64,000 nucleotides of DNA from an uncultured Oscillospiraceae bacterium (lineage in GTDB: Bacteria; Bacillota; Clostridia; Christensenellales; CAG-314), in NCBI GenBank assembly GCA_964577535.1, contig CAZNZO010000003.1:69620-133619 (forward strand), written 5' to 3'. Position 1 is the stretch's first letter; each line of letters starts with the position of its first letter. Made by a program: the position numbers and the translations under genes. The notes beneath the pieces were generated by a model that was given only the letters and a program-made list of their open reading frames with translations, did no database searches and was not told the DNA's origin. Positions 40,845 to 45,366 of this stretch are shown here, one piece after another.

Positions 40845-41300
40845 CTATTCTTTCTTTTTAGTGTCGAATTCTTCTTGTGAAATTATTCCGCTATCAAGCA
40901 ATTCCTTGAATTTTTTCAACTCATCAGCAGGCGAAAGTGCTGCTGTGGGATTGTTTCGTTGCTGCTTGTAGTAGGCAATTCTATCCTTGATATATTGGTA
41001 AGCCTTTTCAAACTCTTCAATATCTGTCAAACCTTTCATAATGATGAATGTGTTTTCACTATCGAAGTTTCTTCTTCCATTATTGGATCCTGGATACTTA
41101 AATTGAATAAAGCCATTCACCAGTCTGGTCGCTTTCTTATATTGAACGGCTGTCAAATCGGAATAATAAAATTCTTTACTTCCGCTAAAAGCTCTACCGC
41201 CAAGGAATCCTAACAACGTTTTCTTTCCAGTTATAACGCAGTGATCTTCAAATACCGATAGTTTTGCAACATTTCCATCTAACTCAAATAATGCATCCAT
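40845..41300 (-). CDS. bacterial PH-like domain plus C-terminal SHOCT domain protein
   Basis: The start is set at ATG 41298-41300 (MDALFELDG) behind an AGGAG SD. The C-terminus ELKKFKELLDSGIISQEEFDTKKKE is a SHOCT signature. Confidence 0.8.
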   Translation of the reverse strand: MDALFELDGNVAKLSVFEDHCVITGKKTLLGFLGGRAFSGSKEFYYSDLTAVQYKKATRLVNGFIQFKYPGSNNGRRNFDSENTFIIMKGLTDIEEFEKAYQYIKDRIAYYKQQRNNPTAALSPADELKKFKELLDSGIISQEEFDTKKKE

Positions 41301-41318
41301 GTTCTCTTCTCCTCTTGT

Positions 41319-41354
41319 ATAAAATAAAAAGTGCGCCAACCGAAGTTAACGCAC
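41319..41354 (-). terminator. strong intrinsic terminator 18 nt upstream of the SHOCT gene's ATG
   Basis: The minus-strand RNA is GUGCGUUAAC-UUCG-GUUGGCGCAC: a 10-bp stem with 2 G.U pairs and a UUCG tetraloop. It is followed by UUUUUAUUUUAU. Confidence 0.8.
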
Positions 41355-41378
41355 CGAAAAACGCAAACCCCGATTGTC

Positions 41379-41535
41379 GCCAAACAAATCGAAGATAGAA
41401 GAGGGACGAATCCTTTGTGTCCTAACCCGCGGAATTTGCGCTTTTACCAAATTTCATCAAAGATTAGGTTGCACGAAAAAGATAGACTTATCCCTAAAAG
41501 AAACGTCCACCTCAAAAATATTCGATTTGTTTGGC
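41379..41535. other. 157-nt element closed by a perfect 15-bp inverted repeat (candidate structured RNA or MITE-like element)
   Basis: gccaaacaaatcgaa (41379-41393) pairs with ttcgatttgtttggc (41521-41535). The helix is extended by gagggacg / cgtc-ca-cctc. Confidence 0.6.
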
Positions 41536-41662
41536 ATATTCACTATATCACATACAAAGATTTTTCAAGTGCTTTACAAATAAAAACTCTACACCAACAA
41601 AACTTTGCGAATGAACACACGATGCAAAAGGCGTTGATACTCCACGCCCCTCGGGCGGCACG

Positions 41663-42004
41663 CTAGAAGCCAAGGCTTACTAGCAAAGCGTTATCTATTT
41701 TTTGCATAACTTCGGCGGGCAATTCGCCAATTTTATCCTTCAAGCGGCTTTTATCGATGGTGCGAATTTGCTCCAACAACACGACGGAATCCTTTGGCAA
41801 GGGCGTTTCCGCACGAGAAAGCCCAACGTGCGTGGGCAATTTGGCCTTATAGAGTCGCGAAGTTGTTGCCGCCGCAATCACGGTTGGGCTAAACTTGTTG
41901 CCGACGTCGTTTTGCAACACCACAATGGGGCGTATTCCACCTTGCTCGCTACCCACAACAGGGTTCAAATCTGCGTAATAAACTTCTCCTCGTTTAACTG
42001 TCAT
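41663..42004 (-). CDS. mazF: MazF/EndoA-type endoribonuclease toxin
   Basis: [43 protein letters not shown]...[13 protein letters not shown] closely matches B. subtilis EndoA as I recall it. The start is set at ATG 42002-42004 behind GAGGGG. Confidence 0.9.
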
Positions 42005-42698
42005 TTTAGTCCCCTCAATTTTGGGCAAACACTCTTTTGCACGAACAGCAGACATTTTCCGCGCCGCTTGTTTGCACGTGACAGCGGACATTAGCGCACT
42101 TGAAAATGCGTTTTGCCAGGCATTTTGACGTTAGCTGCGGCTTATTACACAATGCATAAAATTCTGTTTGATGCGCCGAAGGCACAAACACACAACGCTT
42201 TGTAGTTTTGCACAAGAAGTTAAAAGATAGCGGCAGTTCTTCAAAGATTTTGCAGAATGGCAAAATAGTTACTGCGAACAGCACACAATGCAATAAGTTT
42301 TGTTTTGCTTGCAGGCATGGAAAACTTTTTTGCTCTGCGTGTTTCAAGTGCCAAAACCACAGTTGTGCAAAGTTTTTGCTGCATGGCAAAAAATTTACTT
42401 TGGCTAGTATACACTATGTAACAATTGCAAAAAGTGTTAGCACGGTTATTGTTGCCAACAACACGTTTGCATATACTTAAACTAGAAAACCCGATCGCAC
42501 CACCTCCCAAACGTTTTTTGTTGAACACACCCCACACCGAAAACCACAAGCAAAACCGCAAAACAAACACGAAAAACAAACAATGTTGCAAAAATATAGA
42601 ATAAGCAAAAAGCGCAACTAATTAACAACGACAAACACAAACTAAAAAAGTTGCACGACTTTGCAAAATCAAAAGCCCAACAAACCGCAAAAAACGCA

Positions 42699-42736
42699 AC
42701 AAAAAAAGACGCACTGCACAGTAGCAATGCGTCTTT
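42699..42736 (-). terminator. valS intrinsic terminator
   Basis: Stem AAGACGCA/TGCGTCTT (42706-42713 / 42728-42735), followed by UUUUUUU on the minus strand. Confidence 0.65.
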
Positions 42737-42750
42737 TGACTGCAAAAAAA

Positions 42751-45366
42751 CTATTTAAGTTCGTCCAATCTTGCCAAAAGTTCCTTGTGCAAATCTTGGA
42801 ATTTTTGCAACTTCGCCTTTTCGTTTTCTACCAAAGCGGCGGGGGCTTTAGCAATGAAGCCGGCGTTGCTGAGTTTGCCGTTTGCACGAGCAATTTCGCT
42901 TTCGACGTTTTCCAATTCCTTTTTCAAACGCAAAATTTCCTTTTCGGCATCCACCAAATCGCCCAAGGGCACTTCGCAAGTTGCGGCGGCACACACCACT
43001 TTTACAACCTTTTCGCCCTGCGGAGCCACGCCGTGAACAACTTCTTCCAAGTTGCACAGTTTTGCCAAATACAAATCGCATTCGTTCAAGCGAGCATCGG
43101 AGGAGGTGAGATAGGTGCGAATGCGCTTAGAGGGCGCCACGCCATATTCCGTGCGAACGTTGCGCAGTTTTGCAACAACTTCTTTAAGTTCTTCCACCAA
43201 ACGGCAATCATCTTCAAAATTCAAGCTTTGGTCAACTTCGGGATAGCGTTGAATCATGATGCTTTCGCCGTGGAAAGGCAACGACTGATAGATTTCTTCG
43301 GTGATGAAGGGCACGAAAGGATGCAACAACTTCAAAATCTTATCCAGCACAAAGTTCAAAACGGAAAGGGTGTCGCAACGAGCTTGATCGTCGGTGCCAT
43401 ACAGCACAGGTTTGGTAAGTTCGATGTACCAATCGCAGAATTCGCTCCAAACAAAATCGAACAGTGTTTGACAAGCCAAACCAAGTTCGTATTTTTCCAT
43501 AAGGTCGGTAACTTCCTTGGCGACAGCGTTAAGTTTGGTCAAAATCCACTTATCCGCCAAAGTTAGGTGGCAGGTTGAAATATCTTGTTTTAGTTGTTTG
43601 CCTTCGCAATTCATCAAAACAAAGCGGCTTGCGTTCCAAATTTTGTTCATGAAATTGCGTGTTCCGTCAATTTTATCGGGCGAAAAACGAATGTCCGAAC
43701 CGTTTGCAACGCCGTTTAGCAATGCGAAACGCAAAGTGTCGGCGCCGTATTTATCGATGAAATCCACAGGGTCAACGCCGTTGCCCAACGATTTGCTCAT
43801 TTTGCGGCCTTGTTCGTCACGAACAATACCGTGCATCAAAACGTCGTGGAAAGGCACTTCGCCGGTGGCATAGAGGGAACTGAAAATCATGCGGGCAACC
43901 CAGAAGAAAATGATGTCGTAGCCGCAGGAAAGCACGCTTGTGGGAAAGAACGCTTTGAAATCGGGGCTTCCGCTGCAATAGCCTAGCGTTGAAAACGGCC
44001 ACAGTGCGCTGGAGAACCAGGTATCCAAAACGTCTTCGTCTTGGTGCAAATGGTTGCCGCCACACTTCGGGCAAACGGTGGGGTCGGTTTCTTGGCAAAT
44101 TTCGGCGCCACAATCGGGGCAATACCACACTGGGATGCGGTGTCCCCACCACAATTGACGGGAAATGCACCAATCCTTGATGTTTTCCATCCAGTTGTAG
44201 TAGATTTTTTCGAAACGTTCGGGGTGGAATTTGATTTCGCCCTTCTTAACTGCTTCGATGGCGGGTTTTGCAAGCACGTCCATTTTGACAAACCATTGCT
44301 TGGAAACAATTGGTTCCACTGTTGTGTGGCAACGATAGCAACTGCCAACGTTGTGTTTGTGCGGCTCTACCTTTTGCAAAATGCCCATTTCTTTTAGCTT
44401 GGCAACAATACGTTTGCGCGCTTCGTAGCGATCAAGTCCGGCAAATTCGCCGGCATTTTCGTTCATGGTGCCGTCGTCGTTCATAACGCGAATGACAGGC
44501 AAATTGTGTCTTACGCCCACTTCGAAGTCGTTGGGATCGTGCGCAGGGGTGATTTTTACCACGCCTGTTCCAAAACTCATATCAACGTATTCGTCGGCAA
44601 TGACGGGAATTTCGCGGTTGACAAAGGGCACGACAACAGTTTTGCCCACCAAATGTTTGTAGCGTTCGTCGTTGGGGTTTACGGCAACGGCGGTATCGCC
44701 AAGCATTGTTTCGGGACGAGTGGTTGCAAAAGTTACGGTAGTTTTGCCATCCGTTGTGGTATAGCCATAGTGCCAAAAATGGCCGTCTTGTTCGGCATAT
44801 TCCACTTCTGCATCGGAAAGCGCCGTTTGGCAGGTGGGGCACCAGTTAATGATGCGGTCGCCACGGTAGATTAGGCCTTGATTATACATTCTTACAAAGG
44901 CTTGGCGCACTGCTTTGCTGCAATTTTCGTCCATGGTGAAGGCAAGGCGAGTCCAGTCGCAACTGCTACCCAAATATTTTAGTTGTTCAACAATGCGGCC
45001 ACCGTATTTTTCTTTCCATTCCCAGGCACGCTTCAAAAAACCTTCGCGACCCAAATCGTGCTTGTCGATGCCTTCCTTTTTTAGCGCTTCGACAATTTTA
45101 ACTTCCGTTGCAATGCTGGCGTGATCCACACCTGGCAACCACAACGTGTTGAAACCTTGCATGCGCTTGAAACGGATAAGACTATCCTGAATGGCGTTAT
45201 CCAAGCCGTGACCAAGGTGCAACTGCCCTGTGATGTTGGGCGGCGGCGTGACCATTGAAAAGTGCGGTTTGTCGCTTTCCGCTTTGGGGGTGAAATAGCC
45301 TTGATCCATCCACCAGCGATACAAATCTCTTTCGAAAAGATTGGGTTGATAAGTTTTTTCTATCAT
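42751..45366 (-). CDS. valS: valine--tRNA ligase
   Basis: Contains HIGH (PNITGQLHLGHG), KMSKS (KMSKSLGN) and a C-terminal coiled coil. The start is set at ATG 45364-45366 (MIEKTYQPNLFE) behind GGGAGAA. Confidence 0.97.
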   Translation of the reverse strand: MIEKTYQPNLFERDLYRWWMDQGYFTPKAESDKPHFSMVTPPPNITGQLHLGHGLDNAIQDSLIRFKRMQGFNTLWLPGVDHASIATEVKIVEALKKEGIDKHDLGREGFLKRAWEWKEKYGGRIVEQLKYLGSSCDWTRLAFTMDENCSKAVRQAFVRMYNQGLIYRGDRIINWCPTCQTALSDAEVEYAEQDGHFWHYGYTTTDGKTTVTFATTRPETMLGDTAVAVNPNDERYKHLVGKTVVVPFVNREIPVIADEYVDMSFGTGVVKITPAHDPNDFEVGVRHNLPVIRVMNDDGTMNENAGEFAGLDRYEARKRIVAKLKEMGILQKVEPHKHNVGSCYRCHTTVEPIVSKQWFVKMDVLAKPAIEAVKKGEIKFHPERFEKIYYNWMENIKDWCISRQLWWGHRIPVWYCPDCGAEICQETDPTVCPKCGGNHLHQDEDVLDTWFSSALWPFSTLGYCSGSPDFKAFFPTSVLSCGYDIIFFWVARMIFSSLYATGEVPFHDVLMHGIVRDEQGRKMSKSLGNGVDPVDFIDKYGADTLRFALLNGVANGSDIRFSPDKIDGTRNFMNKIWNASRFVLMNCEGKQLKQDISTCHLTLADKWILTKLNAVAKEVTDLMEKYELGLACQTLFDFVWSEFCDWYIELTKPVLYGTDDQARCDTLSVLNFVLDKILKLLHPFVPFITEEIYQSLPFHGESIMIQRYPEVDQSLNFEDDCRLVEELKEVVAKLRNVRTEYGVAPSKRIRTYLTSSDARLNECDLYLAKLCNLEEVVHGVAPQGEKVVKVVCAAATCEVPLGDLVDAEKEILRLKKELENVESEIARANGKLSNAGFIAKAPAALVENEKAKLQKFQDLHKELLARLDELK

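Follow-up and report, generated by a model that had tools for sequence, protein, structure and literature searches.

An antitoxin-less EndoA-type mazF gene behind sporulation-type promoter matches in uncultured gut Clostridia

The closest described relatives of the gene treated here are the toxins of type II MazEF modules, in which a PemK/MazF-family toxin with its catalytic residues is encoded next to an adjacent, co-oriented upstream antitoxin gene (ribbon-helix-helix EndoAI/MazE or AbrB type) and is translationally coupled to it, with a toxin start codon that overlaps or directly follows the antitoxin stop codon. EndoA/EndoAI of Bacillus subtilis (ndoA-ndoAI, MazEF-bs) and the MazEF systems of Staphylococcus aureus and Clostridioides difficile are the best points of comparison. 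The present analysis concerns a mazF gene in a stretch of 64,000 nucleotides (nt) from an uncultured Oscillospiraceae bacterium; this whole stretch is called the window in the following. The window MazF belongs to the same toxin family and carries the same residues R25 and T48, but its gene has neither an upstream ribbon-helix-helix antitoxin gene nor an overlapping or coupled start, and is instead equipped with its own ribosome-binding site and ATG. In further contrast to EndoA, the protein of 113 amino acids (aa) lacks the ...IDF C-terminal tail that has been kept by the MazE-associated members, the gene lies outside of the alr-mazEF-rsb neighborhood, and its promoter matches appear to be of the sporulation type, while those of EndoA/EndoAI are vegetative. 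It is proposed, with a probability of roughly 0.55, that the gene encodes a solitary MazF ribonuclease (RNase) with sporulation-specific transcription in place of a linked antitoxin.

Connections between MazF and development have been described before. Sigma-E governs the mazEF operon of C. difficile, and Saujet et al. (2013; PMC3789822) suggested that MazF, once released from MazE, may have a part in the death of the mother cell. An EndoA-type MazF tied to mother-cell sporulation expression is common to that system and to the proposal made here, but C. difficile has kept MazE, whereas the window locus has no MazE and matches promoters of the sigma-K and sigma-F/G types, not of the sigma-E type. 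Myxococcus xanthus contains a solitary chromosomal mazF, the product of which (MazF-mx) is under developmental regulation and has been connected with programmed cell death in the course of a differentiation program (PMC4803016, PMC2701414). As in the case of MazF-mx, the window mazF has no adjacent mazE, and it is conserved in this state; the differences are that M. xanthus belongs to another phylum, follows another developmental program, and uses the transcription factor MrpC also as an antitoxin. In the type III systems ToxIN, CptIN, and TenpIN non-coding direct repeats precede the toxin gene, as they do in the window, and the ToxN-type toxins share a Kid/MazF-like fold. In contrast to these systems, the window has no tandem array of near-identical repeats of about 34–45 nt, but two imperfect and unconserved copies, its repeats are not separated from the toxin gene by a terminator, and the sequence of the toxin is that of a PemK/MazF protein and not of the ToxN/AbiQ type. 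Lastly, two reports (PMC11736430, PMC10570053) describe sporulation-specific RNases of B. subtilis, namely KapD, which is under sigma-E/sigma-K control, and NrnB; their expression is confined to sporulation compartments, as is proposed for the window MazF, but they are exonucleases with unrelated folds and are not derived from toxin-antitoxin systems. A solitary, developmentally wired MazF is already known; apparently new are an EndoA-type enzyme with a putative double promoter of the sporulation type and a lineage-specific expanded leader.

The mazF gene and its upstream spacer

The window mazF encodes an intact toxin and is under purifying selection. An earlier note on this DNA had placed an EndoA-type mazF gene at 41663-42004, and this assignment was confirmed: over its full length the protein matches Pfam PemK_toxin (PF02452, E = 1e-35), and it aligns without gaps to the B. 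subtilis EndoA structures 4ME7 and 4MDX (E = 1.8e-42, about 63–65% identity). According to the sequence and the list of open reading frames (ORFs), the start codon is the ATG at 42004. The catalytic residues, a loss of which had been considered in the earlier note, are both retained; R25 and T48 are present in the window MazF and invariant in 169 of 169 aligned relatives (109 MazE-less, 60 with MazE). We take Arg25 and Thr48 to be the catalytic pair of EndoA, from the work on 4MDX. Compared with L005, a contig of a metagenome-assembled genome (MAG) with a 99% identical MazF, the gene has 19 nucleotide changes in 342 nt, 18 of which are silent, so that a single amino acid is changed. Judged by its characterized orthologs from B. 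subtilis, S. aureus, and C. difficile (63–65% identity), the cleavage site of which is UACAU, the window MazF probably also cuts at UACAU.

The spacer between the valS stop codon at 42751 and mazF has a length of 746 nt. About 690 nt of ORF-poor sequence had been described there; the lack of an antitoxin gene was verified, while the length had to be corrected. For a MazE/EndoAI profile, the Acetivibrio straminisolvens antitoxin served as the starting sequence, and 30 related loci were taken in by iteration. The earlier note had named an upstream antitoxin homolog revealed by a sensitive profile search as a possible refutation, but the profile gave no match anywhere in the window, the spacer included, even when the filters were switched off and matches up to E ≤ 50 were admitted. 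Three ORFs are indeed present in the spacer (42015-42389, 42241-42591, 42482-42745), and the 124-aa ORF stops 10 nt ahead of the mazF ATG, as had been noticed. None of them has a match in Pfam, NCBIfam, or PADLOC. For comparison, four metagenome contigs with an identical MazF in the valS-mazF context and the contig L005 were used, and it turned out that indels disrupt the frames of these ORFs on contigs with 99–100% identical MazF, in agreement with the earlier view that they are non-coding. In L001 (MazF 100% identical) a 1-nt insertion shortens the 124-aa ORF to 49 aa, and its counterpart in L005 comprises 42 unrelated residues. Based on the missing family matches and the broken frames the spacer ORFs were rejected as antitoxins. 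N-extended MazF isoforms, which had also been suggested, were rejected because a 1-nt deletion in L001 puts the upstream ATGs out of frame with mazF and such an ATG is missing altogether from L005, despite 100% and 99% identical MazF proteins.

Further searches of the spacer yielded no Rfam match at E ≤ 10 and no tRNA or tmRNA; PADLOC revealed no defense-system context, and no antitoxin gene was found among the about 50 window ORFs that were scanned against Pfam. The core of the earlier note, i.e., an EndoA-type mazF without a linked antitoxin behind a non-coding upstream region, was thus upheld by the profile and family searches. The DNA identity between the window and L005 is 94.4% for mazF and 94.6% for valS, but 73.5%, with many indels, for the spacer. 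This value is roughly equal to the level of silent sites, and the spacer appears to drift near neutrality. A compositional peculiarity was observed in its promoter-distal half (42440-42700, minus strand), which is strongly T/G-rich on the mazF strand, with many TTTTGC and GTTTGT words. On the plus strand its AT skew reaches 0.44 and its GC skew -0.33, and it is the part of the spacer that is least conserved against L005.

The mazE (ndoAI) gene is lost in the window lineage and in several other lineages of Clostridia. This was revealed by a survey of the 80 best MazF relatives (one genome per species, 61–99% identity), in which an upstream EndoAI-type MazE was present in 31 species genomes, and none was found within 3 kb in the other 49. 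The MazE-less MazF proteins form clades that are labeled Oscillospiraceae, Ruminococcus, Christensenellaceae, and Anaerotignum. Cultivable bacteria are among their sources, for example Bianquea renquensis NSJ-32 (L056), Lachnospiraceae bacterium 46-61 (L060), and isolates of Ruminococcus and Anaerotignum. In some of their loci (L010, L179) the preceding gene and mazF are 100–157 nt apart, and therefore there is no room for an antitoxin gene. The proteins of the two groups also differ. Those with MazE almost all have 116 aa, a hydrophobic last residue, and mostly GTG or TTG starts, whereas the MazE-less proteins have 112–142 aa, vary at the C-terminus, lack the hydrophobic end residue, and start with ATG; they thus seem to bear the marks of a long-term life without a MazE partner. 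Several MazE-less proteins of the Oscillospiraceae type, with 131–142 aa (L017, L025, L029, L031, L052, L071, and L072), carry Pro/Arg-rich C-terminal extensions of 15–30 residues (e.g., ...GLIPRPRH...), for which a role as an inhibitor in cis or as a localization tail is conceivable.

Proteins that are 82–86% identical to the window MazF are common in uncultured gut Clostridia with the labels Christensenellaceae, "Candidatus Fimimonas", and "Corallococcus sp. CAG:1435". The closer relatives were obtained by exact-protein look-ups only, and the JGI metagenomes contained none that was closer (best 72%). At every fetched locus of the 82–86% group mazF stands alone, often still beside valS, lgt, or a DUF6320 gene, with a gene-free gap of 157 to about 1000 nt upstream. 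These upstream regions cannot be aligned with the window, except for a short stretch of the promoter block in L182. About 1 kb without a called gene lies upstream of the promoter block in L176-L178 (about 1020–1110 nt) and L182-L184 (about 960–980 nt), which stem from "CAG:1435" and related lineages. Complete or near-complete genomes of the clade include GCA_964521735.1, with L005 and L185, and GCA_022508305.1, with L180. NCBI places "Candidatus Fimimonas" and "Corallococcus sp. CAG:1435" (proteins P0010, P0076) in the Myxococcota. The MazF of these organisms is 82% identical to that of the window, and their valS, lgt, EndoA-type MazF, and promoters are of the Clostridia type, so that the label looks like an inherited misassignment.

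A recurrent family of small ORFs beside MazE-less mazF genes was not found. The clusters of small ORFs near these genes represented shadow ORFs, tRNA read-throughs, or a clade-specific pair of genes, and were rejected. The pair is conserved 5' of mazF in the Ruminococcus-like loci L012, L013, L015, L018, L021, and L022 and consists of a coiled-coil gene and a gene for a sigma-70-region-4-like helix-turn-helix protein of about 105 aa; a tRNA-like gene, deduced from read-through ORFs, separates it from mazF.

Promoter matches of the sporulation type

Four islands in the valS-mazF spacer are conserved between the window and L005, namely the valS terminator, a block of 22 nt (42517-42496), a block of about 75 nt (about 42480-42405), and the last approximately 50 nt before the ATG, which are kept in the window, L001, and L005 and include the ribosome-binding site GAGGGG. 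The conserved block 42410-42476 reads as two tandem promoters of the sporulation type, with -35 and -10 boxes at the correct spacing, which are kept where the flanks diverge. The first, GTATA-N15-GGCAACAATA, agrees perfectly with the consensus of the forespore factor sigma-F (GTATA / GGNAANAMTR) and is the only strict match on both strands of the 64 kb, with 0.03 expected. In L005 both boxes are intact, while the spacer inside is altered (GCAAACGTG to GTAAATTAG). Equivalents are present in L165, L168, and L176, and in L182 one was recognized by eye, with a spacing of 14 nt. The second, AC-N17-CATAGTGTA, follows about 40 nt downstream and perfectly matches AC-17-CATANNNTA, which we take to be the wording of the sigma-K consensus in the table of Helmann and Moran. 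In an alignment of 12 loci of the window clade the TACATA core is invariant, while the flanks cannot be aligned, and a regular expression recovered the K-type match in 9 of the lineages sampled.

The consensus strings of the sporulation sigma factors are tabulated in PMC3416734, which cites Wang 2006 and Eichenberger 2004. Sigma-E and sigma-K share the same -10 box, and their -35 boxes differ by one base, T versus C (Eichenberger et al., PMC517825); the -35 boxes of the sigma-K-type sites described here have the C, which is the sigma-K base. The consensus sequences of C. difficile resemble those of B. subtilis (PMC3789822). A promoter scan found no sigma-A-like site on the mazF strand within the spacer. 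The pair TTGCAA/TATACT had been a candidate for a sigma-A promoter and was rejected, because its boxes are 13 nt apart and the scan reports no such site. The 22-nt block AAAACGTTTGGGAGGTGGTGCG sits just upstream of the -35 box of the sigma-F-type site, in sequence that is otherwise diverged, and may be a regulator site. It also resembles a strong Shine-Dalgarno sequence, and no conserved ORF follows it.

The loss of MazE is strongly and specifically associated with promoter matches of the sporulation type. Three patterns were used, a strict sigma-K pattern, the F/G type GNATA-15-GGnAnnAnT, and the G type GNATA-17/18-CAWAMTA. Of the regions upstream of 99 MazE-less mazF genes, 21, 18, and 8, respectively, contained a match, compared with 0.77, 0.17, and 0.13 expected from shuffled sequences and with 1, 0, and 0 on the antisense strand. 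The corresponding numbers were 0, 1, and 0 for 55 loci with MazE, where the sigma-K count was still 0 when 1000 nt were scanned, and 1, 0, and 0 for 194 neighboring genes of the same loci (Fisher tests of the MazE-less loci against these neighbors: p = 1e-9 for sigma-K, 3e-9 for F/G, and 1e-4 for G). The matches are spread over 35 of 75 clusters of upstream sequence that cannot be aligned with one another, and therefore shared ancestry does not explain them.

The matches lie 50–250 nt from the mazF ATG, and 15 loci have both mother-cell-type and forespore-type sites. In the window clade the F-type site precedes the K-type site, and in Ruminococcus-like clades the K-type site comes before the G-type site; in L012, L015, L018, and L021 the tandem sigma-K-type and sigma-G-type matches are located directly upstream of mazF. 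Nearly all loci of the 82–86% group carry a (C)AC-N17-TACATAnnnT(A) site, and several of them have G(T/C/A)ATA-N14/15-GGnAAnAnT about 40–50 nt further upstream. The distance from the promoter block to the ATG is 60–230 nt in this group versus about 405–475 nt in the window and L005.

The word TACAT is enriched 26–82 nt upstream of many MazE-less mazF genes. A role of UACAU as a self-cleavage site in the leader was considered and rejected, because the two-block pattern with its fixed spacing shows that TACAT is mostly part of a -10 box. The -10 box of the sigma-K-type site is always TACATA, and thus contains UACAU, in the window (42415-42419) and at the equivalent positions in L005, L165, L168, L171, L173, L176, L179, L182, and L008. 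This UACAU would fall inside of the transcript from the forespore-type promoter and outside of that from the sigma-K-type promoter. Its position within the -10 box may be a coincidence or a feedback.

Sporulation-specific transcription and its alternatives

If the two sites are used as their consensus suggests, mazF would be silent during growth and would be transcribed solely in the two compartments of the sporulating cell, driven by the forespore-type (sigma-F/G) promoter and then by the mother-cell-type (sigma-K) promoter about 40 nt further on. MazF dimers would cut single-stranded RNA in these compartments, and this would help to shut down translation, both in the forespore, which is dormant, and in a mother cell bound for lysis. 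In terminal compartments an antitoxin would be dispensable, and control would have shifted from neutralization by a protein to transcription that is specific for compartment and time. The sigma factors that use the sites, the cleavage specificity, and the physiological role are all what we infer. A more far-reaching version is put forward tentatively and at clearly less than even odds. In several lineages of gut Clostridia, MazF may have been freed of its antitoxin and rewired to sigma-F/G and sigma-K promoters, as an unopposed RNA-shutdown factor that silences the forespore, kills the mother cell, or both, and compartment-specific transcription would take over the protective function of the antitoxin. 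The UACAU that the window clade has in its sigma-K -10 box may also make the forespore transcript, and not the mother-cell transcript, a substrate of MazF.

Several points weigh against sporulation-specific transcription of a solitary MazF. The promoter assignments are predictions from consensus matches, and a strict match was present in 41–43 of the 99 MazE-less loci, i.e., in under half. The sigma-K-type match taken alone is at chance level in the window (two matches, 2.5 expected), and its weight comes from its conservation in relatives. No sporulation gene was found among the about 50 window ORFs that were scanned against Pfam, and a machine-learning survey predicts that most MAGs of the Christensenellales and Oscillospirales are non-sporulating (PMC12536801). 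In addition, an unopposed MazF made from an early forespore promoter would be risky and is hard to square with spore development unless its activity is otherwise limited, so that some inhibitor may remain.

The last point leads to the alternative that survives best, an antitoxin that is encoded elsewhere, either as an unlinked mazE/ndoAI or as an unrelated neutralizer that acts in trans. It could be combined with sporulation-specific expression. A precedent exists, because the solitary MazF-mx of M. xanthus is neutralized by MrpC (PMC4803016), and a toxin expressed without opposition from an early forespore-type promoter looks hazardous. An inhibitor acting in trans is a serious possibility, and an unlinked antitoxin is possible, since the search of this genome covered the 64 kb of the window. 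However, no MazE-like ORF is present in the window, and 49 species genomes contain none up to a distance of 3 kb from mazF. An unlinked MazE in particular is disfavored by the proteins themselves, which have given up the C-terminal tail and the fixed length, as would be expected once MazE is gone, and by the repetition of the loss in several clades. Altogether, an antitoxin encoded elsewhere is regarded as less likely than not. Between it and a domesticated RNase, the evidence favors the domesticated RNase, with sporulation-type promoters and a clade-wide loss of MazE.

It could also be that the host does not sporulate, that the conserved block is used by another sigma factor or regulator, and that MazF is a constitutive housekeeping RNase of low expression, which is tolerated because of weak expression or of few sites in essential RNAs. 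The prediction that many related MAGs are non-sporulating and the lack of sporulation genes among the scanned window ORFs would fit. On the other hand, two distinct two-block motifs with the correct forespore and mother-cell spacings are conserved side by side, they are enriched upstream of MazE-less mazF genes only, and no sigma-A-like promoter was found on the mazF strand of the spacer. Furthermore, sporulation genes have been reported in the reduced-genome Christensenellales family UBA1242, including the genus UBA5489 (PMC12306168), and UBA5489 is the label of the MazE-less locus L048. A housekeeping role in a non-sporulating host is therefore considered improbable.

The third alternative, a type III system with a ToxI-like RNA antitoxin, requires a closer look at the predicted leader. 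The ORF-poor stretch upstream of mazF is accounted for by the valS terminator, the promoter block, and an expanded, drifting leader. The latter contains two repeat families, D2 (40 nt, 83% identity, spacing 126 nt) and D4 (23 nt, 83%, spacing 136 nt), and the alignment of the first and second unit scores 45, compared with 15.2 ± 2.5 for shuffled sequences; a three-way alignment showed that the third unit is weaker. The unit of 126–136 nt begins with the -10 region. The extra approximately 350 nt of the leader in the window lineage look like lineage-specific growth by degenerate duplications of about 130 nt. Tandem Repeats Finder reported no array in the leader, and its single find in the spacer was a 9-nt low-complexity repeat near the valS terminator. 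Both D2 elements are retained in the L190/L191 lineage, although the leader around them has diverged; they may serve to bind a regulator or to form an RNA hairpin.

The two repeats that the earlier note had described directly upstream of mazF are real. The copies at 42071-42091 and 42036-42055 match at 19 of 22 positions with one gap, and each opens with an ATG in the mazF frame. No other short-range direct repeat of the spacer scores as high (27; shuffled sequences 17.9 ± 2.1, with 0 of 60 at this level), but simple shuffles understate the chance level, because the words TTTGC and GCAAA occur 6–7 times per kb over the whole window. The repeat is poorly conserved in L001 and L005, the upstream copy being conserved in neither, and in L005 both ATGs are absent and the spacing is 42 nt instead of 36 nt.

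An RNA from these 36-nt repeats or from the approximately 130-nt units, which would bind MazF, could appeal to the presence of direct repeats in the leader and to the two 40-nt elements, which are conserved better than their surroundings. Nevertheless, this option of the earlier note was abandoned, and an RNA antitoxin is judged very improbable. The two 36-nt copies are imperfect and change their spacing in L005, an intrinsic terminator between repeats and toxin was not found on the minus strand at 42005-42700, and the leader evolves near neutrality and has no Rfam match. Its fold is not more stable than that of shuffled sequences (z = 0.04), for which reason a structured leader RNA was also rejected. 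In addition, relatives with 82–86% identical MazF have unrelated leaders of 60–230 nt, and the toxin is a canonical PemK/MazF and not of the ToxN, CptN, or TenpN type. A novel protein antitoxin encoded by a spacer ORF, or an N-extended MazF, is hardly credible, because the classic antitoxin position of the 124-aa ORF and the two in-frame ATGs before mazF are outweighed by the frame disruptions in L001 and L005 described above, the missing family matches, and the strong ribosome-binding site in front of the ATG at 42004.

Neighboring features and meaning for the MazF family

The features of the locus are compiled in Table 1. The valS terminator is kept in L005, where both sequence changes are in or beside the loop.

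Table 1. Coordinates of the features between valS and the end of mazF, given as positions of the window.
Feature	Position	Strand	Basis
mazF, EndoA-type endoribonuclease, 113 aa, intact	41663..42004	-	Pfam, EndoA alignment, conservation
Predicted 5' leader, non-coding, fast-evolving, about 3 degenerate tandem units of 126–136 nt	42005..42403	-	repeat families, alignments
Ribosome-binding site GAGGGG, 6 nt before the mazF ATG	42011..42016	-	read from the sequence
124-aa ORF, not a gene	42015..42389	-	no family match; broken in L001, L005
Two repeats of about 21 nt, 36 nt apart	42036..42091	-	repeat score versus shuffles
40-nt leader element, copy 2, TTTGC-N6-GCAAA hairpin	42234..42273	-	family D2
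40-nt leader element, copy 1, directly 3' of the predicted start, TTTGC-N6-GCAAA hairpin	42360..42399	-	family D2, 83% versus copy 2
Sigma-K-type promoter match AC-N17-CATAGTGTA	42410..42437	-	strict consensus match
Sigma-F/G-type promoter match GTATA-N15-GGCAACAATA	42447..42476	-	strict consensus match
Conserved block AAAACGTTTGGGAGGTGGTGCG, 22 nt, upstream of the promoters	42496..42517	-	identical in window and L005, one substitution in L001
valS intrinsic terminator, 14-bp stem followed by a T run	42704..42737	-	terminator scan

On the other side of mazF a SHOCT/DUF4429 gene is encoded on the minus strand, the true start of which is the ATG at about 41300. The region upstream of this gene (41330-41568, minus strand) is a candidate for a new cis-regulatory RNA. 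It comprises an extended -10 promoter, TGATATAGT, and a leader of about 155 nt with a perfect closing stem of 15 bp (41535-41521 paired with 41393-41379; fold z = -4.28). Between the leader and the ATG lie, in this order, an intrinsic terminator (41355-41330) and a ribosome-binding site. In L192-L195 a SHOCT gene of 75% identity is preceded by a homologous leader, which has compensatory changes in the stems and a conserved loop (GAAATTTGGTAAAA.CGCA.ATTCC). The leader has no Rfam match at E ≤ 10. A comparison of window 40845-41662 with L005 3343-3800 revealed that the SHOCT gene and its leader are missing from the otherwise syntenic L005, and in L001 a deletion of 104 nt takes out the promoter of the leader. 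More distant SHOCT homologs lie beside a tRNA gene or in the surroundings of prophage or mobile genes (recombinase, ParB/methylase, SNF2). The SHOCT gene and its leader look like a small accessory island beside mazF.

The purpose of chromosomal toxin-antitoxin modules has long been disputed, and programmed death mediated by MazF is the most contested case. The loci described here offer a natural experiment, in which the toxin has been retained, under strong purifying selection, by dozens of lineages that have dropped the antitoxin and have placed the gene behind promoter sequences that are typical of terminal sporulation compartments. The window locus is apparently one instance of a pattern that is widespread in Clostridia and has so far not been described; a description of antitoxin-less EndoA-type MazF genes with sporulation promoters was not found in the literature. 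The pattern of MazE-less mazF genes behind sporulation-type promoters suggests that a toxin was turned into a developmental RNase. If this is true, it would show the domestication of the toxin of a toxin-antitoxin system, and the annotation "type II TA (toxin-antitoxin) system toxin" would be misleading for mazF genes without MazE. MazF would also gain a concrete, testable role in the sporulation of gut anaerobes that are abundant and have been little studied.

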